Origin: Chloroflexota bacterium
Lineage (GTDB): Bacteria > Chloroflexota > Dehalococcoidia > UBA2247 > JAXHVC01
DNA length: 64,000 nt
Assembly (NCBI GenBank): GCA_034189315.1
Contig: JAXHVC010000224.1
Span: 281 to 64,280, forward strand
Direction of reading: 5' to 3'
The position numbers and the translations under genes are program-made. Within the stretch, counting starts at the first letter, position 1, and each line of letters begins with the position of its first letter. Shown one piece after another: positions 4,436 to 27,283 of the stretch. Below the pieces are notes generated by a model. It was not told the origin of the DNA. It did no database searches and worked only from the letters and a program-made list of their open reading frames with translations.

Positions 4436-5380
4436 TTACGAGCCAAAATCAAGCATCGCAGTCAAATCAAGTACATCATCACCCTGAGCTGCCTCAGGTA
4501 ATTCTACCGTAATCTCCTCATTCACATCGTATATAGTCATATCAAAGGACATCTCCCCAGTCTGACCTTCAGCCTCAATAGACATAGTCCCTTCCACTTT
4601 TACAAGCATACCTGTCTCAACAGCTAGATACACACTTGCTGAGAGGTCTCCCATATAAGAAGCCATCTCTTCTGCAAAGGCATCATACTTGTGATCAATA
4701 TCAGCACCATTATCTATTAAATCCGTCGGGAGAGTAACACCCATAGACTCGGAGTATTCCGTGAAATCCATATCACTATCGTCCATAAGTATCATCATTT
4801 TCTCTATGAATTGAGCCATATTCGGTACAACCGTCACCTTGTAGCACTCCACCCCCTTCACGATTTGTGTGCCCTCTATTGTTAAATCACATGTCGATTG
4901 TAGTACACCCAATATATCAATAAAGCTCTCATCCATAGCTAGAGAACTTGGATCTGGTATTTCCTGTCCTGTCTGGCCAGAAGCAAACTGATTGGCTGCA
5001 CCAATGAGGTCTACCCTTATCTTGATCCAAGATGTATCACCAGTATCTGTATTTGGAATACCCGCATACAGCACATTATCAACAACGTACATCTGCACCA
5101 ACTGTGATTCAGAAGACTCGGGAACCGACATTTCCATTACCATACTCATGTCCCCGCTCTCCGAATTCATAGCCATTTCCATACTCACAGAACCATCGTC
5201 ACTATCATCCCCAGAAGCACTGAATTCCATATTCATATCCATGCGATACGACTGCATTTCTTGAGGGTTGGTCTGGGCTTGTTCTATAAGATCATCAATG
5301 GCTGTTGATCCAGAGCCTCCGCAGCCACTGAGGGCCACTACTAGTATAAGAATACAAGCTATTGGCAAAAACCTTTTCAC
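4436..5380 (-). CDS. Secreted lipoprotein, acidic and Met-rich
   Basis: Signal peptide plus lipobox (LILVVALSGCGG). The N-terminal third is rich in MxM/MxxM motifs and Asp/Glu (MDMNMEF...SMEMAMNSESGDMSMVMEMS). Confidence 0.6.
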   Translation of the reverse strand: MKRFLPIACILILVVALSGCGGSGSTAIDDLIEQAQTNPQEMQSYRMDMNMEFSASGDDSDDGSVSMEMAMNSESGDMSMVMEMSVPESSESQLVQMYVVDNVLYAGIPNTDTGDTSWIKIRVDLIGAANQFASGQTGQEIPDPSSLAMDESFIDILGVLQSTCDLTIEGTQIVKGVECYKVTVVPNMAQFIEKMMILMDDSDMDFTEYSESMGVTLPTDLIDNGADIDHKYDAFAEEMASYMGDLSASVYLAVETGMLVKVEGTMSIEAEGQTGEMSFDMTIYDVNEEITVELPEAAQGDDVLDLTAMLDFGS

Positions 5381-5693
5381 GTACCTACCTCCTAATATAT
5401 TGATACCCGATCTGTCTTTGTGCAGAGTCTACTCCACTTGAGTAAATACGTTAGTTTACGAAGTCAATAACTATGTAAAAGCCAAATGAATTTAAAGTAA
5501 CAAATATCAGTCAAATTTAATCTTTACCATCTTCACTATAGCCTTGATCTTCCCCATAATAACTAATACTCCATAACAATCAGTCAGTTAGCCCATCAGG
5601 AATGTAGTGTAACCTTCAGTAGTCCGATGAATATCGAAATCCAGGAGACCTAGAGGCTGTATTCCATGTCAACGGACCCTATCGCAATGTTAT

Positions 5694-5806
5694 TGAGAGC
5701 ACGGGACCAGTGAGTAACACGGGTTATTAGTAAAAGAAACATCCCGTTTCTCAGGAGGATCGGAAGCGACGAGGCAATCTCTCCTCTGGAATGAGATTGC
5801 TTCACC
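5694..5806. repeat. Copy 1 of a duplicated ~120-nt element (partner at 8224-8351)
   Basis: About 65 nt at roughly 80% identity to 8224-8288 (gagcacg...gtgagNNacacggNttattagNaaaagaaacNtccNgtttctNaggag), plus a shared gattgcttcacc 37-52 nt downstream. It contains the agaaac/gtttct hairpin. Confidence 0.55.
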
Positions 5807-6654
5807 TTTGGTTCGCAAAGATGTGACAAACTCGGATTGTTCATCACATAATGTAGTCTAATGTGCAGGGGAAGTTCTGACCTTCCTGGGAAGGGCGAAT
5901 GAATACACCCATACTATCTTATGGGTAATTAAACTAGGTTAAGTGATGTTATAGGACACACGGAACTCATATATGTGATAGTTAGTAGATATTAATAACA
6001 ACCATTGACATACAACTAGCTATTATCACCCGATAACGGATTAGCAGAGATTACGATGATTTTTACGAGGAAGTCACGGACCTAATCATTCATTCCATCA
6101 AGAGAAAAGCCTGATACATTGTATTAACATATCAGTGCAGCAGAAAAATCAAGAAAACACGAAGATTAGGGGCTTGAGTACAGAGCTGGTATATGGTATA
6201 TTCAATCTAGTTACTAACCCACACATCCCCAGAATAAAGATTTAGCGGTTTAACTGGTTAGAAAATGGAATGTATTGAGTTCTTCAAATACACCTATACC
6301 TATAGTCAATAAGTAATGTTACTAAACCTGATATCTACTCGTACTTGAGGCACATGAATCCTGCGAGGTTAGAATTGCCATACCCTATGATTAGGAGGAA
6401 GGTGTTTTCAGTTTCTATCCAAAAACATGACATAGCAAGTAGCACCCCTAGGATCATTCTCCTATCAGCACTCGTACTTCTGACCTATACAAGTGGATGT
6501 GTATTATTCTAATAAGCATTAGATAGGGAAGACATATTACTTTATGACTAATCTGCACATTAAAAACCGAATGGCGTAGCTTTCTATATATCCTAAATAG
6601 TTATTGTTAACTGAGCTTGATATTGGTTTTGGGTTGCACTAAGGGGTCAGAATA

Positions 6655-7827
6655 TTGAGAATAGCCCTTATTTCTACTTATGGCGTTCGGTGTGGTATAG
6701 CAACCTACTCATCTCACTTGGTCAAACAGCTAAGCAAGAACCATGAAGTGACTGTATTTGCAGAAGACTATATAGACAACAAGCAACATGGTTTCCAGCC
6801 GGATGTGCAGGTGATCCGATGTTACAATAGGAAATCTCCATCCGATAGGTTGGTACGTTGTCTCCGAAGGAATCACTTCGATGTCATTCACATCCAGCAT
6901 GAGTATGGCATATTTCGCAATATGTATCTACAGCTATTGAATATCACCAATAACAACCTTGGAACGACATTCATGACCTCACATACTGTGAACGCCTTAG
7001 ACACTCAATTCACCCTTAGACGGTGTGCAGACCATATCATCGTACACAACGAGGCGAGTAAGCGACACCTGACTCAGGAGTGCGGATTACGCGGTGATAC
7101 TACACAAGTGATTCCTCATGGAACATTGTTACTCCCATCAATTTCTAAGGAAGTCTCAAGGCTAAGACTTGGGCTTCCTACCAAAGATAGAATCGTTCTC
7201 ACACATTCCTTTATTGAGAGACGAAAGAATCTGGATATAGTGATGAGCGCTGTAGCAGAATTACAGGGAGAGACGCCAACCCACTATGTCCACGCTGGAG
7301 GGCTTCATCCCTATGCAGACATTGAAGAATATGCGTATGCAGAGTCACTAAAAATGCAGCCTAAGGCGCTTGGAATTGAACCTGTAGTTCATATAATAGA
7401 TAGGTTTATACCTGATGATGAGTTAGCATACTACTTGTCAGCAGCGGATATTATTGTGGTCCTGGAGAAAACATCATATCCAGAGCTTCGTGCTTCAGGC
7501 ATCATGCATACTATCGTTCCAGGATCAGTGATAGTGGCGTCCAACATAACGGAGTTCGATGAATTTCCAGATGATACGGTTTATAAAGTAGGAATCAACA
7601 CAGAGGCACTGGCTCATGCAATGCAACAAGTTTTTACCGACCCCAAACTAAAACATATCCTGTCAAACAACCTTCTGCAATATGCCAAAGCTTCATCATG
7701 GGAAAACGTTGCTGAATATCATATAGCTGCCTATCAGAACTCACTAGATCTCAAAGTCAACAAGCACAACGAGAGACAATGTCCTCATCCAAATAGACAC
7801 AACAAGCAGCTGTCCTCAGACAGATGA
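6655..7827 (+). CDS. Glycosyltransferase family 4 (GT-B, group 1)
   Basis: 390-aa ORF. The N-terminus MRIALISTYGVRCGIATYSSHL is typical of GT4 enzymes, with a C-terminal retaining-GT-B-like region. Confidence 0.7.
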   Translation: MRIALISTYGVRCGIATYSSHLVKQLSKNHEVTVFAEDYIDNKQHGFQPDVQVIRCYNRKSPSDRLVRCLRRNHFDVIHIQHEYGIFRNMYLQLLNITNNNLGTTFMTSHTVNALDTQFTLRRCADHIIVHNEASKRHLTQECGLRGDTTQVIPHGTLLLPSISKEVSRLRLGLPTKDRIVLTHSFIERRKNLDIVMSAVAELQGETPTHYVHAGGLHPYADIEEYAYAESLKMQPKALGIEPVVHIIDRFIPDDELAYYLSAADIIVVLEKTSYPELRASGIMHTIVPGSVIVASNITEFDEFPDDTVYKVGINTEALAHAMQQVFTDPKLKHILSNNLLQYAKASSWENVAEYHIAAYQNSLDLKVNKHNERQCPHPNRHNKQLSSDR

Positions 7828-7851
7828 CTATTTCTTCAAACTAATGGGAAT

Positions 7852-7917
7852 GGCGTTCAGCCATGGGTGGTCAGCATTCGGTTTAGACTGAGTGCTGATA
7901 GCCGATGGCTGAACGCC
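7852..7917 (+). terminator. Long hairpin 24 nt downstream of the GT4 stop (13-bp outer stem ggcgttcagccat/atggctgaacgcc)
   Basis: A perfect 13-bp inverted repeat encloses a ~40-nt inner structured region. A terminator role is inferred only from its position after the GT4 stop; the tail after it (ttacttcc) is weakly T-rich. Confidence 0.4.
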
Positions 7918-8223
7918 TTACTTCCTACCTTTCGTACCTAAGTTATAGCATACTCAATTCCAATTATGTAATGATTAGTTTATTTACTAATGGTCTCATA
8001 ATTAAATGGACGCACTCTTTAGCTTTGAAATGAGTCATTTCAAGTATGCGAGATACCCACATAAAGCTAATTTGTTGGTTCAGATTATTATGAGACTATT
8101 AGTACTATATGCTACTGGTATAGTGTTCAAGACAAAGCCCCGAAATTACATCCCCCCGTCAGGAAATTAGTTCACGTTCACCATGCCCCCCAAGTGATCG
8201 TGATTTGAGACAATTCGTTCGTT

Positions 8224-8351
8224 GCGAGCACGAAATCCGTGAGGGACACGGTTTATTAGGAAAAGAAACCTCCAGTTTCTTAGGAGAGATTTCCCTACAA
8301 ATGTATTAAAAGAATGCCAGACTAAGGACTAGTCGGCATGATTGCTTCACC
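8224..8351. repeat. Copy 2 of the duplicated ~120-nt element, spanning the stop codon and 3'UTR of the GH130 fusion gene
   Basis: Homologous to 5694-5806. In minus orientation it forms the hairpin AGAAAC-UGGAG-GUUUCU followed by UUUUCC, a weak intrinsic-terminator-like structure just after the stop at 8322. Confidence 0.55.
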
Positions 8352-11300
8352 GATGATATCCACTCCCGTCTTCATTCTTATTTCTTCTGGAATCAAGTCA
8401 CCCACTTTTGCCGTGGCTGCACAGATAACAGTGTCGGCTGCTCCATAATAGACTATGATCTCGTCCCCCACATCCAATAATTCCTTATCTTGCCGCGCTA
8501 CTGCACCACAAGTAAACACCACATTGGGGATCCAGGACTTGCCATGCTCACCAACTTCATAGGTCGCTAACGGTTCTAATATAGCATTAGGTGAACGATA
8601 GATAATCTTTGCTGGATCATTAAGATCCACCACCATGACCCCCAACCGATAGACATGTGCGAAATCTACACCGTGATAAATCAATAACCACCCATACTTT
8701 GTCTTAAGTGGTTGGGCACCAGCCCCCACCTTCACTCCATCCCAGGTTACACCTGAACGCGGTCCTGTCAATATTTTGTGGCCTTTCCTCGACCAAGGTG
8801 CATCTATGGTTTCAGAGTAGGATATCCATACACTAGGTTCAATGCGATGATACATGACGTATTTCCCATTGAACTTCTCAGGGAAAAGCACAGCATCTTT
8901 ATCAGCATACCCAGGAAAAGGTTGTCCATGCCTCTCCCATCTATCCCAACGATGATTCAGAAAATCCCCTATATCAATTGAAGCAATGGCGATTTGTGCT
9001 GCTATATGACTAAAGGCAGTGTATAGCATGTATACCCGGTTATCGATCACCACAATCCTAGGATCTTCACATCCTTTGCTCTCCTCCTCAACAGCTGGCC
9101 CATACACCGGATAAGGGAGTCGTTCACTTATGTGGATACCATCAGAGCTCTCGGCAAGACCTATCCTGGATATAGAATCCTCCCCATAGGCACGATATAG
9201 GAGATATGTAATCCCCTTTATAATCACTGCTCCACAATTAAGTACATATTTAGACTCCCAGGTATGATCTGATATCGGTTGAAGTATTGGATTCTCTTTC
9301 ACCCTACTAAGCACACCAGCTTCGGGTTGTTCCATAGCTAAAGGCTGTGCAGGTAATACCTTTGTCGTTTCTCTCCCTAGCGGCAATACTATATATGAGA
9401 GATCCTCCGATTCCCGGCCTTGCCCCATAAGCTCCACGATCTTTCCATCCAAGCGATTCTCATCACCACCAATCACCTCAAACAAGCGCAAGAGAAATTC
9501 ACGTGATGCCCAGTCTCTCTCCACATGCACAGATAAAGGCGTTGGGACACCCCTCCCCCCCCTGGCACTGTAACTCGACCAACTCCAACAAGAGCATGGA
9601 ATGAACTTACCTCCCGTTGTAGTCCAGGCAATATGGTAACAATCAGTGGCATGTTTAAGCATGCTTGCCAAATGTTTAAACTTTTCATGATGCACCATAT
9701 CTTGCACCATCATTCTTAGCCGCTCGACAAGAATTCTCTGATTCTTATCCTCAAATATGTTATGAGCAGATAGTGGCTCCCTTCCCCAATGCCCTTCGAT
9801 AGAATTAATCACTTTTCTGCCGAACTCCTTCTTTTCTTCGGCAAATATACGCCACATCTCGCCAAACCGCTCACCTTCGACAATATTCTTACAGACAAGT
9901 GTTAGATAACGCGTCTTAGGAAATTCGCCTCCCACTCCCTTGGGAAGGTTTGTAACCATAATCCGACCACTCAGCATATCTACTTCCGAAACACCTCTCG
10001 ACTCAAGTAACAAAGGAAATCTATCGTAATCTACCACCAAAGGCTTTAGTGAATCTAAAGTAAAATGATCTGGTCGCGCGTTACTCCTAATCCACGCCCA
10101 TATCCTTGCCCGATGCTCCATTTCTTCAGAAAGTCCAGCCAGAGCTAGGATGTCATTCGGAGCATATACCTTCTCAAGTTTTGACAGTGTGATCGGTCCC
10201 AATTTGAGCAGTAGATTAGAAGGTGGATACCGTCTAAGAAGCCAGGAAATAACATCAGGTTGAAGCATATATCCTTGCTCATAAGGCAATCTACTAAAAA
10301 CGGCATCTACAATCGAATCAACTCCATCCTGCATAGTGACATCTCCAGAAAGTAATGCCTCATCAAGATCTACTTCAAGATCCCTCATGAAATGCTTTAC
10401 TTCATAGACGACCTCTCGTGTATCAGCTCCATACGGTACACCCAGCGTACCATGGACAAAATGCTCAAATCCTTCCTTCAGATGCCCCACGATTTCCCGA
10501 TGAACAACATCTACTCGAGCTATCTCTCCATTCGGAGCAGTGATTTCATGCGGCATTATTAGTGCCACACCTGGGACAAACTCCCTACATGTTACATTGG
10601 GAAGCATGGGAAGAAAGGCTTCCTCCTTCTCTGTCCACCTGGTCATGAATTCAGACCGTTGTCTCACAAACTCACTGACCTGATCTTCAATCCACCCCTC
10701 AGCCTGCGATTGCACAATAGGTTTGGCCTCATCATGAGGAATCCTCGATAAACGGCTCTCGAGAAATCGGACCTGGTTTGCGAAACTAGCGAGTCTACCA
10801 TCATAAATTGGCACGAACGCGCTAAGTAAATCCTCTTTGTCGATATCACTAGCAAAGTTAAACGCACAGGCAAAATGATAGACTGTACGAGCCCATGTCT
10901 CAGTATTAAGAGAGAACTTCTCATCATCAGTCTCGGCCAGAGCTTCTAGTGTCTTGCATAGGTCTGGAGGCAAGATCCTTTCACATACGGTATGGTCATA
11001 ACGATTAAAGCCTTTTCTATACCTTGCCATCAGCCATATAGAATTCAACCGACTTTCAATAGGCCCCCGTCTCTCAGTATCCACAATCTCATCAACAGTA
11101 CGAAGTATATGCCCTCTCTCCTGCCACCAGTCACTATGCAATACAATACATTCAAACAAGGTTTTTGCCACTTCCCTTAGAGATACTTCCATCTTCCCGG
11201 GGGACGACTTGTGTAACCTGACACCCATATCAACTTCACATATCTTGACGTCACCAGTGATCGCACAAGTGACCATCCACAGATCCGTACCAAGTCCTCT

Positions 11301-11966
11301 GGTCTCGCTGAACCAGGCACCCGGGCTATTTAGGCAAAGATCCAGACTTGACCTGGACATGGCAAATTCTATTCCAAGAGGATCATGTATCTTCACTCCA
11401 TAGACACCTGCAATTAAAGGGTAAGCTAGATGTCTAGCAGTTGGCACCTCAAAGGAATGCCTATTGAATCTCGATACAGCAAGTCCATAATCATCATTGC
11501 GTATTGGAGATAGAATTCGATGGACCCAATCAGGGCTCATTCCCTTGTTTCCAGAGTTTGAGCTCTTCCTGCTTATCAGGTCAGCCTCAAATATGGCAAT
11601 ATCGGAACGTAGCAAGCTTGCTATCTCCATAATGGCTCGCAGACTCCACCCCTTACCACTCACCTTCTTACTGTTCATCAGGAATGAAATCCGCGATATA
11701 TTTCCTTCACGAGGAAGACCTCGTATCACCTCCAAGGTCGTACTTCCAGCTGCATCTCCAACACATACCACCACACACTTGTTGTCTGGATAGTACTTCC
11801 TTAGTCCATCCTCCACAGTAAGCAGTAAACCTGCAATAGTATCCATCTCTTTCCAAAATGGGATACCCACTACAATGTCTGCAGTTCCAATTGCTTCTAT
11901 CTCTTTTAATGCATTTCGCAAGGATTCGCGATATTCCTCCTCAACAGGGGAACTCTTACTTGTCAT
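8322..11966 (-). CDS. Multidomain protein: N-terminal nucleotide-sugar glycosyltransferase-like (GT-A) region, central unknown region, C-terminal GH130 (beta-mannoside phosphorylase/DUF377) domain
   Basis: The C-terminal ~330 aa carry GH130 hallmarks (GWLLIYHGVD, VVFTCGAV, IIVYYGAADTVICAA). The N-terminus (DIVVGIPFWKEMDTIA...CVGDAAGSTT) resembles GpgS/MGS-type GT-A synthases. The start is trimmed to the Met at 11966, which has a GGGGGTGA Shine-Dalgarno; the six-frame ORF extends to 12065. Confidence 0.7.
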   Translation of the reverse strand: MTSKSSPVEEEYRESLRNALKEIEAIGTADIVVGIPFWKEMDTIAGLLLTVEDGLRKYYPDNKCVVVCVGDAAGSTTLEVIRGLPREGNISRISFLMNSKKVSGKGWSLRAIMEIASLLRSDIAIFEADLISRKSSNSGNKGMSPDWVHRILSPIRNDDYGLAVSRFNRHSFEVPTARHLAYPLIAGVYGVKIHDPLGIEFAMSRSSLDLCLNSPGAWFSETRGLGTDLWMVTCAITGDVKICEVDMGVRLHKSSPGKMEVSLREVAKTLFECIVLHSDWWQERGHILRTVDEIVDTERRGPIESRLNSIWLMARYRKGFNRYDHTVCERILPPDLCKTLEALAETDDEKFSLNTETWARTVYHFACAFNFASDIDKEDLLSAFVPIYDGRLASFANQVRFLESRLSRIPHDEAKPIVQSQAEGWIEDQVSEFVRQRSEFMTRWTEKEEAFLPMLPNVTCREFVPGVALIMPHEITAPNGEIARVDVVHREIVGHLKEGFEHFVHGTLGVPYGADTREVVYEVKHFMRDLEVDLDEALLSGDVTMQDGVDSIVDAVFSRLPYEQGYMLQPDVISWLLRRYPPSNLLLKLGPITLSKLEKVYAPNDILALAGLSEEMEHRARIWAWIRSNARPDHFTLDSLKPLVVDYDRFPLLLESRGVSEVDMLSGRIMVTNLPKGVGGEFPKTRYLTLVCKNIVEGERFGEMWRIFAEEKKEFGRKVINSIEGHWGREPLSAHNIFEDKNQRILVERLRMMVQDMVHHEKFKHLASMLKHATDCYHIAWTTTGGKFIPCSCWSWSSYSARGGRGVPTPLSVHVERDWASREFLLRLFEVIGGDENRLDGKIVELMGQGRESEDLSYIVLPLGRETTKVLPAQPLAMEQPEAGVLSRVKENPILQPISDHTWESKYVLNCGAVIIKGITYLLYRAYGEDSISRIGLAESSDGIHISERLPYPVYGPAVEEESKGCEDPRIVVIDNRVYMLYTAFSHIAAQIAIASIDIGDFLNHRWDRWERHGQPFPGYADKDAVLFPEKFNGKYVMYHRIEPSVWISYSETIDAPWSRKGHKILTGPRSGVTWDGVKVGAGAQPLKTKYGWLLIYHGVDFAHVYRLGVMVVDLNDPAKIIYRSPNAILEPLATYEVGEHGKSWIPNVVFTCGAVARQDKELLDVGDEIIVYYGAADTVICAATAKVGDLIPEEIRMKTGVDIIGEAIMPTSP

Positions 11967-12190
11967 CCATATCACCCCCAATGTACATAGTAGACTTCTT
12001 TGCTGTATTATCAGGGTTGAGTCACGCCAATAAAAAGGGGGGCAAGTTAAGAAACAAGCCCCCACACGCCTATATATCTAAGTTTATACTATAAGAATAT
12101 GCGAAAATAGACTTAAGAAAACGCTTAGCTATGAGACCCACCACTGGGAGTCACATTACTGATATATTTAAAACAAACGATAGAATAGAA

Positions 12191-12955
12191 TCATATTACC
12201 TGCCTAAGCCCTGTCACGAACGATTTTACATTTGATATTGGATTATCCCCCGCGAGTAATTGAATAATGCGGCTACCCACTATAACACCATCCGCGATAG
12301 ATGCCACATGCCTTGCTTGTTCGGTTGTCGATATACCAAAACCTACGCACAGTGGCAGAGTAGTCTTTTGCCTAACCCTATAGACAAACGCATCTAGATC
12401 GGATGAGAGTTTTTGCCTGGCACCAGTTACTCCAGCCAAGGAAACAAGATAGACAAAACCACTAGATCTCCTTGTGACAAGATCGATCCGCTCCTCTGTA
12501 CTTGTGGGTGCAAGCAAATATGAGAGATGCAACCCATACTTACGACTGAGCTGTTCCAACTCGTTTCCCTCCTCTGGGGGTAAATCAGGGATGATGAATC
12601 CGTCAACTCCCGCTTCGTTTGCCGTACAACAGAACGAATCCAGCCCAAACCTGAGTATCGGATTGTAATAGCTCATAAACACTATGGGCACTTTGGTACG
12701 AGTTCGTAGTTTAGCCGCTACTTCAAGGCAGACCTCCGGTGTGACACCATTGAGTAAAGCCCGATAGCTAGCTTCTTGAATAGTCGCTCCATCGGCTAAT
12801 GGGTCGGAGAAAGGAATACCAAGCTCGATGATATCACAACCACAATCCGCTAGAAGCGGCACAGCTTCTAACGTCGTCTCTACGGACGGATAGCCCACCG
12901 TAAGATAAGCTATAAGGGCTTTATGCGTAAACGCAGATGCAATACGATCTATCAT
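12191..12955 (-). CDS. trpA: Tryptophan synthase alpha subunit
   Basis: 254-aa ORF with [10 protein letters not shown]...[17 protein letters not shown], a canonical TrpA. It overlaps trpB by 4 nt. Confidence 0.93.
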
Positions 12956-14139
12956 CCTAATTCCAATTCCTGTAATACAATATGAAGGTCTTTATCCCCA
13001 CGTCCCGATAGATTCACTACTATGAGTGTATCACTAGGCAAATCACCCGCAAGCTTCATCGCGTAATAGACTGCATGCGACGACTCTAATGCAGGAATTA
13101 TGCCTTCGGTTTCCGAGAGAGTCTGGAAAGCCCCTAGCGCTTGACCATCATTAACAACTACATATTCCGCCCTGCCGATATCTTTATAGTAGCTATGTTC
13201 AGGGCCAACTCCAGGATAGTCCAAGCCAGGGGCAATACTATGAGTGCACATTATCTGACCATGCTCATCTTGCAGCAGATAGGTCTTAGTGCCATGTAAC
13301 ACGCCAGTACTTCCTTTAGCTAGACTGGCAGAATGCTGCCCATGAGAGAGAGATTTCCCCGCAGCCTCTACACCCACCATTTTTACTTCCATTGAATCTT
13401 CAAAGGGATAGAATATCCCCATAGCATTACTCCCCCCACCAACACAGGCAACCACATAGTCAGGCAGACGATGATACCTCGACATCATTTGCCTTTTTGC
13501 CTCCTTACCAATCACAGATTGGAAATCACGGACAATCTTAGGATATGGGTGAGGACCAACTACGGATCCAAGAAGAAAATACGTGTTGGTGACATTGGTC
13601 ACCCAATCACGAATAGCTTCGTTGATCGCATCTTTGAGAGTACGGCTACCCGCATCGACCGCACACACCTCAGCACCAAGCAGTTTCATTCTAGCCACAT
13701 TCTCAGACTGACGTTCTACATCTTCCTGTCCCATATAGACTACACACTCCAAACACAGGAGAGCACATGCTGTAGCCGTTGCTACTCCATGCTGCCCAGC
13801 TCCGGTCTCTGCCACAATACGGGTCTTCCCCATATATTTGGCTAGTAATGCCTGTCCCAAGGCATTGTTAATCTTGTGTGCACCAGTATGTGCTAGGTCT
13901 TCACGTTTGAGAATTATGGTTGCTCCACCAACCTTCGCTGTCAGTTGATTGGCCTGGTACAAAGGTGTAGGACGTCCAACATAATCGCACTGTAATGACT
14001 TAAGTTCTGCTTTGAACGAGGGCATAGAGGTAGTCTCTTGGTAACATTGCTCCAATTGGCTTAGAGCGCTCATCAGCGTCTCTGGAACAAACCTTCCCCC
14101 GTAGGGACCAAAATACCCTCGTCGATCTGGCGATTTCAA
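12952..14139 (-). CDS. trpB: Tryptophan synthase beta subunit
   Basis: 395-aa ORF with [19 protein letters not shown] and GGGSNAMG motifs. Confidence 0.95.
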
Positions 14140-14351
14140 TATCGCGTCTCCTTAAATCTAATCCTTAATAAAGGTGATCCACCTCAACTATGTTCTGATT
14201 TGCGTTACGAATAATACCTCATACCATAAAAATTGTCCTTAAGACTCGGGGAATGGTCCACTTCTTTACATCATTACGATTTCCACAATCATGCTCATCT
14301 TAATAATCCTCTATGGTGTCTACAAATTGTCAATATGAATAACCGAAATAG

Positions 14352-14957
14352 CTACGCATTTCTTGCAGCTTCTAGAAATGCACGGAGTTTGACGTGATCT
14401 TTCTTGCCGGGCTCACTCTCCACCCCACTGGAGACATCTACAGCATATGGGCCAACAGTCTTTATGGCAAGTTGCACGTTTTCAGGAGTCAACCCACCAG
14501 AAAGGATAATACGACCATAAGGCACAGCCTTTTTCGCAATACCCCAATCAAACACCTGGCCTGTGCCCCCCTGTCTCTCTGGGCTATACGCATCCAAGAG
14601 ATATGCTACAACCTTATAATTAGTTAGGGAATTCAATACAGAATCATCCTTCACTCTAAAAGCCTTTATCACCCTCGGTGATAGCTCACGGCAAAGCTCT
14701 GAGCTCTCTGAACCATGCAGCTGTACCAAATCCAATCCACATAAAGATATTGAATCTCTGATAATATCCAAATCCTCATCAACAAAGATACCAACCTTGG
14801 AAACAAACGGAGGTAACTCCTTCACTATACGGAGAGCATCTTGTATAGCTACCTGCCTTGGGCTTGGTGCAAAGACAAACCCTAAAGCCTCCGCTCCCAA
14901 TTCGATAGCAGCCAAGGCATCATCAACATTCGTTATACCACATACTTTAACCTTCAA
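14352..14957 (-). CDS. trpF: Phosphoribosylanthranilate isomerase
   Basis: 201-aa ORF starting MKVKVCGIT...ALGFVF. Its position in the trp operon and its 4-nt overlap with trpC support the call. Confidence 0.85.
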   Translation of the reverse strand: MKVKVCGITNVDDALAAIELGAEALGFVFAPSPRQVAIQDALRIVKELPPFVSKVGIFVDEDLDIIRDSISLCGLDLVQLHGSESSELCRELSPRVIKAFRVKDDSVLNSLTNYKVVAYLLDAYSPERQGGTGQVFDWGIAKKAVPYGRIILSGGLTPENVQLAIKTVGPYAVDVSSGVESEPGKKDHVKLRAFLEAARNA

Positions 14958-15736
14958 TTCACCGCGCTCCCCATCAACTCCTCGATCTTGGCACCAGGGT
15001 CTGAACTTGTCACTAGAGATTCACCTACCAACACCGCATGAACACCAGCCAGCCTTAATTGTTCAATATCTTTATGTGTCTTGATGCCACTCTCACTGAC
15101 TACGGTAACTGTAGATGGTAGCAGTGGAAGAAGGTCAAATGTAGTCTGCAGATCAACAGTAAAATCTGCCAGGTTCCGGTTGTTGATTCCAACCAGCTCG
15201 GCACCTGAAGCCAGTGCCACCTCTAATTCAGCTCGATTGTGTATCTCTACTATAGCAGCCATACCCAAGCTGTGAGCCAAATCCCGCAGCATTTCGATCT
15301 TATCAGGTTGCAGAATAGCGGCAATTAGAAGTATGGCATCAGCTCCATAGAGCCTAGCCTCATATACTTGATAGGGATCGATGATAAAATCCTTACGCAG
15401 CATTGGGAGTTCAACAACCCTACGTGCAATAGCCAAGTCATCCAGGCTACCCTTGAAGAATGTTGGCTCTGTTAGAACTGATATGGCACTGACCCTTGCC
15501 CTAGCATAACACACAGCAATATGTGCCACATCGAGGCCGGGACAAATCTCCCCCTTAGAAGGGGAGGCCTTCTTTATCTCAGCAATAAGATCAATCCCCT
15601 CACCCTGTAGTGACTGGGTGAAATTATTAGTACAACAACACCCGCTTAGAGATTCTTTGATACTGGAAAGTGGGGCTCTTTGTTTGTGTTTGGCTACCCG
15701 TTGTCGAGTGTCCTCCACTATACGGTCTAAAATCAA
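14954..15736 (-). CDS. trpC: Indole-3-glycerol phosphate synthase
   Basis: 260-aa ORF with ILDRIV...EIKKASPSKG...LRKDFII...VGINNRNL motifs. Confidence 0.9.
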   Translation of the reverse strand: MILDRIVEDTRQRVAKHKQRAPLSSIKESLSGCCCTNNFTQSLQGEGIDLIAEIKKASPSKGEICPGLDVAHIAVCYARARVSAISVLTEPTFFKGSLDDLAIARRVVELPMLRKDFIIDPYQVYEARLYGADAILLIAAILQPDKIEMLRDLAHSLGMAAIVEIHNRAELEVALASGAELVGINNRNLADFTVDLQTTFDLLPLLPSTVTVVSESGIKTHKDIEQLRLAGVHAVLVGESLVTSSDPGAKIEELMGSAVN

Positions 15737-15894
15737 TTTACACTCCGACGTATGACTAAATCACACAATCCCTTGTTACTCCATCGTCATACCAAATCAC
15801 CCACATCATTACATACCTAATACAGCATGAAATCACCTATACCCCCAAGGGATCTCTAAAGTAAAGGTTGTACATATTCTGTTTTGTATCCACT

Positions 15895-16908
15895 TTAGAA
15901 ACTATTGGTAAGCCTAACAAGGCTTTCAAGTTTCTCAGCCGCTTGTCCCGAATCGATCGCTCGAGCCGCAGCATGGAATCCTTCTTTTATGTCAGATACA
16001 TGACCAGCGATTGCCAGTGCTGCAGCAGCATTAAGTAGCACGATATCACGCTGCGGCCCTGGTTTGCCTTGCAACACATCCTTGGCTATTTGAACATTCT
16101 CCTCAATGCACCCCCCCTTAAGCTGCTCCATATCAGGAACCACAATTCCCATTTGTGCCGGATCAAAATAGAATGTTCTTTGCTCTCCATTACGTAGGCA
16201 AGTGACCTTATTCACACCTGTTGTCGACAGTTCATCTAATCCATCCGCACCATTCACAACAAGTACACGATGCGATCCCAACCGATTAAGCACTTCGCAC
16301 ATAACTTCAGTCAGTTTAGGATCATACACTCCAAGCAACTGAATGGGAGCAGAGGCGGGATTGGATAATGGCCCGAGTATGTTGAAGATAGTCCTGATAC
16401 CCATCTCTTTTCTTGTAGGTGCAGCGTGTTTCATAGCTGGATGCAAACTTTGTGCAAACAGAAATCCAATACCCACTTCATCAATACATCTGCCCATTTG
16501 TTCTGGGGTAATATCGATCCTCACAGACAACGCATCAAGCAGATCAGCACTGCCACATTTACTGGATACGGCACGATTACCATGCTTGGCAACAGGTAGA
16601 CCAGCGCCATCCACAACAAAAGCCGCGATCGTAGATATATTGAATGTGCCAACCCCATCCCCACCAGTACCACATGTATCCACTAGAGGTGACCTATTAG
16701 ACTTCACCTTAATGGAATGTGCACGCATAGCTCTGGCACACCCTGCTATCTCATCAATCGTCTCGCCCTTTAATCTTAAAGCAGTAAGGAAGCTTCCCAT
16801 CTGGCTGGGAGTGGCTTCTCCCTCCATTATCTCTCTCATCACCATCTCAGATTCTTGCTCACTGAGATCTTCTCTAGTTACAACCTTAGCTATAGCTTCA
16901 CGTATCAT
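15895..16908 (-). CDS. trpD: Anthranilate phosphoribosyltransferase
   Basis: 337-aa ORF with the GTGGDG motif and the NGAD...LDE region. Confidence 0.9.
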   Translation of the reverse strand: MIREAIAKVVTREDLSEQESEMVMREIMEGEATPSQMGSFLTALRLKGETIDEIAGCARAMRAHSIKVKSNRSPLVDTCGTGGDGVGTFNISTIAAFVVDGAGLPVAKHGNRAVSSKCGSADLLDALSVRIDITPEQMGRCIDEVGIGFLFAQSLHPAMKHAAPTRKEMGIRTIFNILGPLSNPASAPIQLLGVYDPKLTEVMCEVLNRLGSHRVLVVNGADGLDELSTTGVNKVTCLRNGEQRTFYFDPAQMGIVVPDMEQLKGGCIEENVQIAKDVLQGKPGPQRDIVLLNAAAALAIAGHVSDIKEGFHAAARAIDSGQAAEKLESLVRLTNSF

Positions 16909-16920
16909 AAGTTTTACCTT

Positions 16921-18492
16921 TCACGCTATCCGGTTTTCTGCCATACGAATTGCGGCCTCCGCAGCCTTAACTTTGTTCAAAGTCTCGTGATATTCAAGCA
17001 GCGGATCGGAATCGGCAACCACACCAGCCCCCCCTTGAAGATAGACAGTGTCACCAATCATAACAATGGTCCGGATAGTGATGCAGGTATCCATATTACC
17101 ACTGAACCCAAAGTATCCTACAGCACCAGCATAGGGTCCCCGCTTAATCCCTTCCAATTCAGTAATGATGTCCATAGCTCGAATCTTGGGTGCACCAGTG
17201 ACCGTGCCAGCAGGAAAGCATGCCCTAAGCAAACTAAAAGCATCGTACCCACCCCGTAGGTCTCCCTTTACCGAAGACACTATGTGCATTACATGTGAGT
17301 ACCGCTCAATGCCCATATACAAAGGCAAGGTAACGCTACCATAATTGCATACCCTACCGATGTCATTTCGACCAAGATCCACCAACATAACATGCTCTGC
17401 TAGCTCCTTGGGATCGGACAGGAGACTTTCACACAAAGCACTATCCTCTTCATCATCCTTCCCCCTAGGTCTCGTACCTGCTATTGGTCTGGTCTCCGCC
17501 TTGCCATCTTCAAGTTTCACAAGCGTCTCAGGCGAAGAACCTATTAGTTGGAAATCACCAAAATTCAGGTAAAACATATATGGGGATGGATTCAATCTTC
17601 GCAAGGATCGATATATGTCGAAGGGATTCGCCCAAGTCTGGCGATACAGACGCTGTGAGGGTACAACCTGAAGTATATCCCCCGCATATATATACTCCTT
17701 CCCAGCTTTCACCATATCCATAAACTGGGTTTGCGAAAAATTGGATGTTAGCTCAGGAGTTGTTTTCGGGGAAACCAAATGGTTCAATTGCAGCTTCGAA
17801 GATAGGCCATGGCCAAGGACCTCAACCAGCGAATCAATTCTATCTATAGCCTCATTATAGGTCATAGCCCCAGGAAGCACATTGCAGACTATCTTCATAC
17901 AATGCTGTAAATGGTCAAAAATCACTAATGTATCTGTGAATAAGAAAACACTATCGGGTAGGGCAAGGTTATCTCTTGTGCATGCATCCAATCCTTCAAA
18001 AAAATGTACGACGTCGTACGAGATATACCCAACAGCTCCCCCAAAGAATCTAGGGAGACCGGGAATCCTTGCCACTGGAGGCCTTATTAATAGTTGCTGA
18101 ATTAGATGAAGAGGATCAGGGCCTTCGGATGAATCCGCTAAGGTCACTCTTTGCTCCGAACCATTTCGACAAATAAATCCCTCATTACCTGATGTCTTTA
18201 CAACAAGATATGGATCAAATCCTATAAAAGAATATCTACCAATACTCTCCCCTCTCTCTATACTCTCCAATAAAAAACAAGGGGGGTTCTTACGCAGCTT
18301 GAGGAATACAGATATCGGAGTTTCCAGGTCCGCAGGAAGTTCACGTAATACTGGCACAAGACAACCAGCGTCTGCAAGACGTTCAAAAGTATCCTTATCT
18401 GGTATATACATAAAAAGAAACTCCTCAAGCAACCTAGGAAAGTAGCAAACCAACCAATCATAAAAAACTGAGGGATCTACTGTTAATAACAT
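16921..18492 (-). CDS. trpE: Anthranilate synthase component I
   Basis: 523-aa ORF with the chorismate-binding C-terminus (GYFGFSGNMDTCITIRT...GGAGVVADSDP). No trpG/pabA-type amidotransferase is nearby. Confidence 0.9.
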   Translation of the reverse strand: MLLTVDPSVFYDWLVCYFPRLLEEFLFMYIPDKDTFERLADAGCLVPVLRELPADLETPISVFLKLRKNPPCFLLESIERGESIGRYSFIGFDPYLVVKTSGNEGFICRNGSEQRVTLADSSEGPDPLHLIQQLLIRPPVARIPGLPRFFGGAVGYISYDVVHFFEGLDACTRDNLALPDSVFLFTDTLVIFDHLQHCMKIVCNVLPGAMTYNEAIDRIDSLVEVLGHGLSSKLQLNHLVSPKTTPELTSNFSQTQFMDMVKAGKEYIYAGDILQVVPSQRLYRQTWANPFDIYRSLRRLNPSPYMFYLNFGDFQLIGSSPETLVKLEDGKAETRPIAGTRPRGKDDEEDSALCESLLSDPKELAEHVMLVDLGRNDIGRVCNYGSVTLPLYMGIERYSHVMHIVSSVKGDLRGGYDAFSLLRACFPAGTVTGAPKIRAMDIITELEGIKRGPYAGAVGYFGFSGNMDTCITIRTIVMIGDTVYLQGGAGVVADSDPLLEYHETLNKVKAAEAAIRMAENRIA

Positions 18493-27193: not shown

Positions 27194-27283
27194 CGGAGGG
27201 AGTGGGATTCGAACCCACGACCCCGGATCAACGGGGTAACCGCTTAGCAGGCGGCCGCACTAGACCAACTATGCGATCCCTCC
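27194..27283 (-). tRNA. tRNA-Ser (anticodon GCU), class II with a long variable arm
   Basis: Reverse complement reads GGAGGGA-tc-GCAT...; anticodon stem-loop GCCGC-CUGCUAA-GCGGU. Long variable arm, GGTTCGAATCC T-loop, and a 7-bp acceptor stem pairing with TCCCTCC. CCA is not encoded. Confidence 0.85.

Follow-up and report, generated by a model that had tools for sequence, protein, structure and literature searches.

A GH130 phosphorylase joined to a GpgS/MGS-like glycosyltransferase and a conserved middle domain in Chloroflexota and other anaerobes

Cyclic β-1,2-glucan synthase (Cgs) combines a GT84 glycosyltransferase, a cyclization domain and a GH94 phosphorylase. A comparable layout is seen in a 1214-residue protein encoded in a 64,000-nucleotide stretch of Chloroflexota bacterium DNA (Dehalococcoidia; contig JAXHVC010000224.1, positions 281 to 64,280; called the window throughout), which consists of an N-terminal GT-A glycosyltransferase module (N), a middle domain (M) and a C-terminal GH130 module (C). 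The likeness is that a Leloir glycosyltransferase and a phosphorylase predicted to be β-1,2-specific share one polypeptide with a domain between them; the fusion did not qualify as a homologue of the Cgs modules (GT84, cyclization, GH94).

The physiological model for the function proposed below is provided by the Leishmania MTPs (GT108, with a GH130-like fold), which carry out cytoplasmic synthesis and phosphorolysis of a β-1,2-mannan reserve, mannogen (PMC4264767; PMC10913872). These enzymes differ in being eukaryotic and single-module, in using another primer and in having neither a GT-A module nor M. A glycerate-primed, mannose-containing solute resembling the proposed product is made by the mannosylglucosylglycerate pathway of Petrotoga and Rhodopirellula (GpgS/GgS, MggA, MggS; PMC3736172), but there the mannose is α-linked and added by GT-B enzymes, the pathway is not known to involve a GH130 or M domain, and the GT4 subfamily at the window locus is not the MggS-like one. 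CAZy is reported to have listed a few 'GH130-GT81' modular proteins in 2018 (Li et al., PMC7660257); these entries may correspond to the family of the window protein. The catalytic modules are all drawn from known superfamilies, and a literature search found no description of M, of the breadth of the family or of its partnership with GT4.

Architecture and distribution of the fusion

The gene is read on the minus strand from an ATG at 11966-11964 to a stop codon at 8322-8324. A longer open reading frame (ORF) starting from a GTG at 12065 is mechanically possible and was rejected on homologue lengths and on the ribosome-binding site: the identical protein, a 'glycosidase' from an NCBI Chloroflexota metagenome-assembled genome (P0001), and a relative with 84% identity (P0002) both have 1214 residues. 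Neither a signal peptide nor a transmembrane segment was found in the 1214-residue protein, whose Kyte-Doolittle 19-residue mean peaks at 1.36 over the full length. The fusion protein is therefore predicted to be soluble and cytoplasmic.

Searching with residues 1-880 returned 73 protein clusters, nearly all of about 1200 residues and all with a C-terminal GH130 domain, and a scan in which one genome stood for each GTDB species revealed a relative encoded in 189 genomes. Dehalococcoidia make up the majority of these carriers, which also include Desulfobacterota, Bipolaricaulota, many Firmicutes and archaea of methanogen and anaerobic methanotroph (ANME) groups (Methanomicrobia, Methanophagales). 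Most are uncultured anaerobes; the Firmicutes include the isolates Thermoanaerobacterium sp. DL9XJH110 and Tepidanaerobacter sp. GT38. Among the target genes of 84 fetched loci, 83 keep the N-M-C order and the remaining one has an insertion within N. Because the same architecture is kept in 73 clusters, in 83 of 84 loci across phyla and in 189 species-level genomes, an assembly or frameshift origin was rejected, and the 1214-residue fusion is real and widely conserved. This breadth, together with the modular proteins already listed by CAZy (PMC7660257), contradicts the preliminary description of this stretch, which had called such a covalent coupling unusual.

The fused form is thus widespread, and a single adjacent natural split was found, in which an N-M protein of 887 residues (P0086) is followed 20 bp on by a separate 333-residue GH130 gene. 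The only fragmented copy (locus L094) comes from a contig on which short pieces replace many of the genes (PMM, ManC, GT4 and N, M and GH130 separately). This breakage looks like the result of assembly indel errors, and 'standalone M' proteins from such contigs are hence artefacts.

Active sites of the terminal modules and conservation of the middle domain

Module C matches Pfam GH130 (PF04041) over residues 908-1190 (E 5.9e-50; score 170.4 bits, gathering cut-off 26; aligned to positions 35-313 of the 320-position profile). Its best solved relatives are the β-1,2-oligomannan phosphorylase Teth514_1788 (PDB 9fj8, E 5e-59) and the β-1,2-mannobiose phosphorylase Teth514_1789 (PDB 7fip, E 2e-56), and both alignments cover the entire enzymes of about 300 residues. 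When residue roles established for Uhgb_MS and Teth514_1788 (PMC12814180) were mapped onto the module, D968, K1023, H1040-R1041 and K1079 aligned with Uhgb_MS D137, K184, H201-R202 and R242. The pattern is that of a phosphorylase, with a catalytic Asp and basic phosphate ligands rather than carboxylates, at positions that are near-invariant in 47 family members. E967 aligns with Uhgb_MS E136, the Glu that sets β-1,2 specificity, whereas the +1-subsite Arg, R925, equates with R47 by motif position only, since the N-terminal stretch of the alignment is weak; with the Arg placed in this way, both the Arg and the Glu expected of β-1,2-mannoside GH130 enzymes (GH130_4/_6) are present. The catalytic Asp, phosphate site and β-1,2 determinants are shared with Teth514_1788/1789, and the long GH130_4 lid is absent; those enzymes are single-domain, whereas module C is tethered to N and M.

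The earlier call of a GH130 domain is hence confirmed; the domain is intact, with β-1,2-mannoside phosphorylases as its nearest relatives. The score against the NCBIfam β-1,2-mannobiose phosphorylase equivalog (NF052550) is 252.2 bits, below the cut-off of 450, which places module C as a relative of that enzyme and not as its equivalog. Because the catalytic Asp, the phosphate ligands and the β-1,2 determinants are all kept, module C looks like an active β-1,2-mannoside phosphorylase.

Recognition of module N required family-level evidence. Pfam, NCBIfam and PDB sequence searches of the window N module, whole and in pieces, gave nothing significant; the window protein did not match Pfam MGS_GT (PF21969) at E<=1 for the full length or E<=10 for N-terminal pieces, nor the NCBIfam GpgS models. 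An AlphaFold2 model of residues 1-880, made with 47 homologues (mean predicted local distance difference test score (pLDDT) 85.5), predicts the GT-A plus helical-domain fold of mannosylglycerate synthase (MGS, GT78). An exhaustive profile search collected 2149 relatives of N, mostly standalone proteins of about 390-435 residues that cover N alone and match Pfam Glycos_transf_2, MGS_GT (21-33 bits, cut-off 27) and NCBIfam GpgS (44-87 bits, cut-off 262). A profile built from the window module and its relatives found GpgS structures (GT81, PDB 7p5l/4y6n) as its best match (E 9e-17), with the same catalytic constellation, and MGS (E 5e-15) over MGS residues 37-356, helical subdomain included. At the profile level, the match to GpgS structures shows homology and not GT81 membership.

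These results bear out the earlier proposal of a GpgS/MGS-type GT-A domain and revise its limits. The module is about 450 rather than 330 residues long, since it includes an MGS-type helical subdomain; of the roughly 500 residues that had been left unassigned, about 150 belong to this subdomain and about 410 form a distinct conserved domain that is not a linker. All five motifs quoted in the preliminary description are present (DIVVGIPFWKEMDTIA at residue 30, VCVGDAAGSTT at 67, IYHGVD at 1096, VFTCGAV at 1150 and YYGAADTVICAA at 1173).

With catalytic roles in MGS and GpgS taken from the literature (PMC2581804), MGS K76, D100, D102, R131, L163, D192 and H217 map to window K105, E127, D129, R169, L197, D228 and H252. 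Conservation among the 47 fusion proteins is nearly complete for E40 (47/47), K/R105 (47/47), D129 (46/47) and D228 (47/47), and MGS T139 falls at T176/A177 in the window, where 34 of 47 relatives have Ser. Compared with MGS of Rhodothermus marinus (PDB 2bo4/2y4k), to which it is 16% identical, window N has Glu at the first Asp of the DXD motif and no recognizable Gln66, misses Pfam MGS_GT and is joined to two extra modules. Taken together, the comparisons show module N to be homologous to MGS and GpgS; its active site looks essentially intact, and its sequence misses the curated thresholds of both families. The window motif PLGIE shares its Gly with PLGGE of MGS, where GpgS has Ser (PLSGE); the region of GpgS Ser210 has been tied to discrimination against mannose (PMC2581804), and the Gly is a weak hint that mannose may be tolerated as donor.

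Relatives of N also occur in fusions whose other partner is a pair of glycerate-2-kinase domains, DUF4147 and MOFRL (P0111, in which about 350 unassigned residues separate N from the kinase), a HAD phosphatase (P0127) or a TrkA_N domain (P0133). One relative is a triple tandem, N-N-N (P0106). N modules are also found in giant proteins of 3140 (P0085), 3487 (P0122), 3517 (P0198), 2720 (P0170), 1901 (P0168) and 1807 (P0128) residues, and residues 266-1534 of P0085 form a whole N-M-C unit.

Module M is the most conserved part of the protein, with 25 invariant positions in 47 sequences. Thirty-six of its polar residues are at least 90% conserved, including six invariant Glu (E462, E531, E614, E699, E739, E816), and C791, W794 and W796 are also conserved. 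M is predicted to fold as a separate domain in a model of its own (pLDDT 87.8, predicted template modelling score 0.88). Searches with M, whole and in pieces, found no sequence match in Pfam, NCBIfam or the PDB, and no fold relative was found. Because of its conservation pattern, M is probably functional, as a catalytic or substrate-binding domain, rather than a spacer.

The company that M keeps is restricted. Its architectures are N-M-C, N-M, M-C (P0099), GH130-GH130-M (P0100) and N-M followed by a TreT-like GT4 (P0075, P0092), and, fragments excepted, M was never observed apart from a glycosyl-transferring partner. A homologue search with M alone returned only M or M plus GH130 proteins, mostly fragments. 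One operon (L092, 2759-7680) encodes PMI, a GH130 protein and a GH130-GH130-M protein, and so combines three GH130 modules with M; no N module lies nearby on this 8-kb contig.

Gene neighborhood

Clustering of neighboring ORFs over the 84 fetched loci left the GT4 family as the only widely conserved neighbor, present in 52 of the 84 and within 3 kb in 51. Thirty-two copies lie directly upstream of the fusion on the same strand. In Firmicutes, two GT4 paralogues and then the fusion gene form an operon, and in some Dehalococcoidia both GT4s are merged into one protein of about 770 residues. A relationship between the window GT4 and the TreT-like GT4 fused in P0075 was considered and rejected, as similarity was undetectable.

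Genes that link the fusion to mannose or glycerate metabolism appear in fewer places. In seven loci a homologue of mannosylglucosylglycerate synthase lies directly upstream (NF041101, E 2e-71, below cut-off). The idea that MggS is itself a GH130 enzyme was rejected, because the NCBIfam model for MggS picks out the GT-B-like neighbor gene instead of the GH130 module. PMI and/or PMM are near the fusion in six loci and ManC in three, and such genes also occur in L092 and L094. Four of these loci have standalone GH130 genes, which are seen again in L091 and L092.

The preliminary description had placed the fusion beside a GT4 enzyme and a secreted lipoprotein in an AT-rich segment. Both neighbors are indeed there and only the GT4 is conserved: the lipoprotein was not found beside the fusion in other loci of the set, and it is incidental. 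Its composition is strongly acidic, with an abundance of Met, Ser, Asp and Glu. The AT-richness likewise holds for the flanking ORF-free gaps alone (Table 1), whereas the GC content of the fusion gene, 0.455, is close to the window mean of 0.447. The gap that reaches 1.27 kb 5' of the GT4 gene has no ORF of at least 80 residues and matched no Rfam family at the gathering threshold; it may be an extended 5' region, the remains of a gene or an RNA of an uncharacterized kind. Promoter, terminator and Rfam scans of the flanks of the fusion gene were uninformative, and the sole Rfam match within the window is a tRNA whose 90-nt length suggests a long variable arm.

Table 1. Features of the fusion gene and its surroundings in the window.
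Feature	Position	Strand	Evidence and motifs
Complete ORF, 1214 aa + stop codon	8322..11966	-	3645 nt
Shine-Dalgarno-like GGGGGTGA	11972..11979	-	5 nt 5' of ATG; read directly from sequence
Module N, GT-A catalytic subdomain, aa ~28-300	11067..11885	-	GIPFWKE (E40), GKG (K105), E127-A-D129 (DXD equivalent), R169, PLGIE (195-201), GTD228, H252
Module N, helical subdomain, aa ~301-451	10614..11066	-	Equivalent to MGS C-terminal helical domain
Module M, aa ~455-862 (~410 aa), domain of unknown function	9381..10604	-	GGEFPK (679-684), EGHWGREPLSAHNIFE (724-739), FIPCSxWxWxSYS (788-800), HVERDW (814-819)
Linker joining M to GH130, low confidence, aa ~863-884	9315..9380	-	pLDDT <50 at aa 865-880 and in the final 15 residues modelled for M
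Module C, GH130 five-bladed propeller, aa ~885-1195	8382..9314	-	PF04041 and PDB matches; R925 (LLYRAY), E967-D968 (CEDPR, catalytic Asp), K1023, H1040-R1041, K1079, H1098
GT4 (GT-B) glycosyltransferase	6655..7827	+	Pfam Glyco_transf_4 + Glycos_transf_1; convergent, 495 bp from fusion stop
ORF-free gap between fusion and GT4	7828..8321		GC 0.401
ORF-free gap 5' of GT4	5381..6654		GC 0.381
Lipoprotein	4436..5380	-	Lipobox LSGC, DUF6612 match
trp operon (trpE, trpD, trpC, trpF, trpB, trpA)	12191..18492	-	By sequence inspection
tRNA, 90 nt	27194..27283	-	Rfam

On its other side the fusion gene trails the trp operon on the same strand, with a gap of 225 bp. Pfam-confirmed trp genes lie a few kb from the fusion in L008, and trpB/trpA homologues are downstream of it in L036; the adjacency may be local synteny rather than co-function. 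In three loci of one uncultured lineage (L005, L006 and L007, gene at 8001-11654), N-M-C sits amid a type II secretion/type IV pilus cluster (T2SSE/F/G/J/K, PilM and a PilS-like kinase) and has no GT4 neighbor.

Proposed function and alternatives

Domain identities, intact active-site residues, conservation of the fusion and its gene neighborhood are demonstrated by the comparisons above. We tentatively favor, at somewhat short of an even chance, a cytoplasmic three-module enzyme that, with GT4, makes and turns over an intracellular glycerate-primed β-1,2-mannoside, as an oligosaccharide or compatible solute. Module N (residues 28-451), a retaining GT-A enzyme, would transfer a hexose, most likely mannose, from a nucleoside diphosphate sugar to a hydroxyl of glycerate or a similar small hydroxy acid, giving an α-glycosyl 'primer'. 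Module C (residues 885-1195), which is inverting, would add β-1,2-mannose reversibly from mannose 1-phosphate (Man1P) onto the primer or growing chain, and phosphate would remove it; GDP-mannose is a possible alternative donor, as its use is possible for this GH130 clade (PMC12814180). The adjacent GT4 enzyme or enzymes would add further residues, and M (residues 455-862), as the partner of GH130 and N, would perform a step of unknown chemistry. The end product, an intracellular mannoside primed with glycerate, would function as a reserve or compatible solute. Donor, acceptor, product, direction of flux and role of M are all what we infer here.

Fusions of N relatives with glycerate-2-kinase domains and with a HAD phosphatase, together with the MggS homologue upstream in seven loci, suggest a glycerate-type acceptor, and the PMI/PMM and ManC genes provide the link to mannose. 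The earlier suggestion of a role in making or recycling a mannosyl/glucosyl compatible solute or head group fits these same fusions and neighbors.

Several points weigh against this proposal. In about 18 loci whose flanks are complete, even the GT4 neighbor is missing, and mannose-pathway, MggS-like and glycerate-linked genes are found in a minority of loci only. The assignment of window N, which has no significant Pfam or NCBIfam match, comes from its predicted structure and the family profile. The first DXD Asp is Glu (E127), only 33 of 47 family members retain His252 as second metal ligand, most members have Ser, and the window protein Ala, at the equivalent of the acceptor residue Thr139, and Gln66, which confers guanine specificity on MGS, has no obvious equivalent; given the partial retention of His252 and the replacement of Thr139, donor and acceptor are putative. 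M has no assigned function, which leaves the model short of one key step, and no characterization of any family member was found in the literature.

An unlikely alternative is salvage or catabolism, in which GH130 would phosphorolyse β-1,2-mannosides, imported or derived from other organisms, to Man1P and the glycosyltransferase modules would reuse the mannose for housekeeping glycoconjugates. For the nearest characterized GH130 enzymes, Teth514_1788/1789 of Thermoanaerobacter, whose genes are grouped with those for a Man1P guanylyltransferase and a GT4, a GDP-mannose salvage route has been put forward (PMC4264767), and ManC and PMM genes adjoin the fusion in some loci. However, the 84-locus analysis identified no ABC transporter, secreted glycosidase or binding protein as a conserved neighbor, whereas transferases are conserved, and the attached primer-type GT-A module, with relatives fused to a glycerate kinase or HAD phosphatase, suits synthesis better.

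Glycosylation of protein or envelope, with the GT4(s), the GT-A module and GH130 (as a GDP-mannose- or Man1P-dependent β-mannosyltransferase) assembling a defined glycan whose acceptor is a protein, pilin, S-layer or lipid, and not a free solute, appears quite improbable. It would draw on the operons of two GT4s plus fusion, which imply at least four glycosidic bonds, on the position of the gene inside the secretion/pilus cluster of one lineage, on SLH and cadherin-like proteins near the fusion in L003 and on the weak glycosyltransferase activity of some β-1,2-acting GH130 enzymes (PMC12814180). That GH130 alone is catalytic, with N a degenerate GT-A fold and M a scaffold that serve oligomerization or regulation of the phosphorylase, is very unlikely: the ExD form of the DXD motif, the presence of His252 in only 70% of members, the mostly Gln equivalent of E166 and scores under the Pfam glycosyltransferase thresholds would agree with it, but all mapped catalytic residues are present in the window protein, the retention of E40, K105, D129 and D228 in 46-47 of 47 members, like the 25 invariant positions of M, is not easily accounted for unless there is a ligand-binding or catalytic role, and standalone N homologues form an abundant family of about 400 residues that matches GT2, MGS_GT and GpgS models.

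Returning to the favored glycerate-primed mannoside, a more specific and rather doubtful version is that N-M-C is a self-contained prokaryotic 'mannogen-like' machine, in which N would make a mannosylglycerate primer, C would build and degrade β-1,2-mannan with Man1P and phosphate, and M would be a new enzyme fold acting, for example, in chain-length control, dephosphorylation or transglycosylation. According to the Thermoanaerobacter study, no source of β-1,2-oligomannan is known in that genus (PMC4264767). If this version proved true, it would account for an endogenous origin of β-1,2-mannosides in anaerobes, bacterial and archaeal alike, and define a new family of carbohydrate-active domains.

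M, which equals the catalytic modules in conservation and has no Pfam or PDB relative, is a candidate new carbohydrate-active domain. Phosphorylase-glycosyltransferase fusions of this kind are attractive for nucleotide-sparing β-mannoside synthesis, and the cultured carriers Thermoanaerobacterium sp. DL9XJH110 and Tepidanaerobacter sp. GT38 make the hypothesis directly testable. The coupling of a primer-type transferase to a phosphorylase in 189 genomes points to an unrecognized intracellular mannose glycoside in these organisms, which may serve as a carbon reserve or stress solute.

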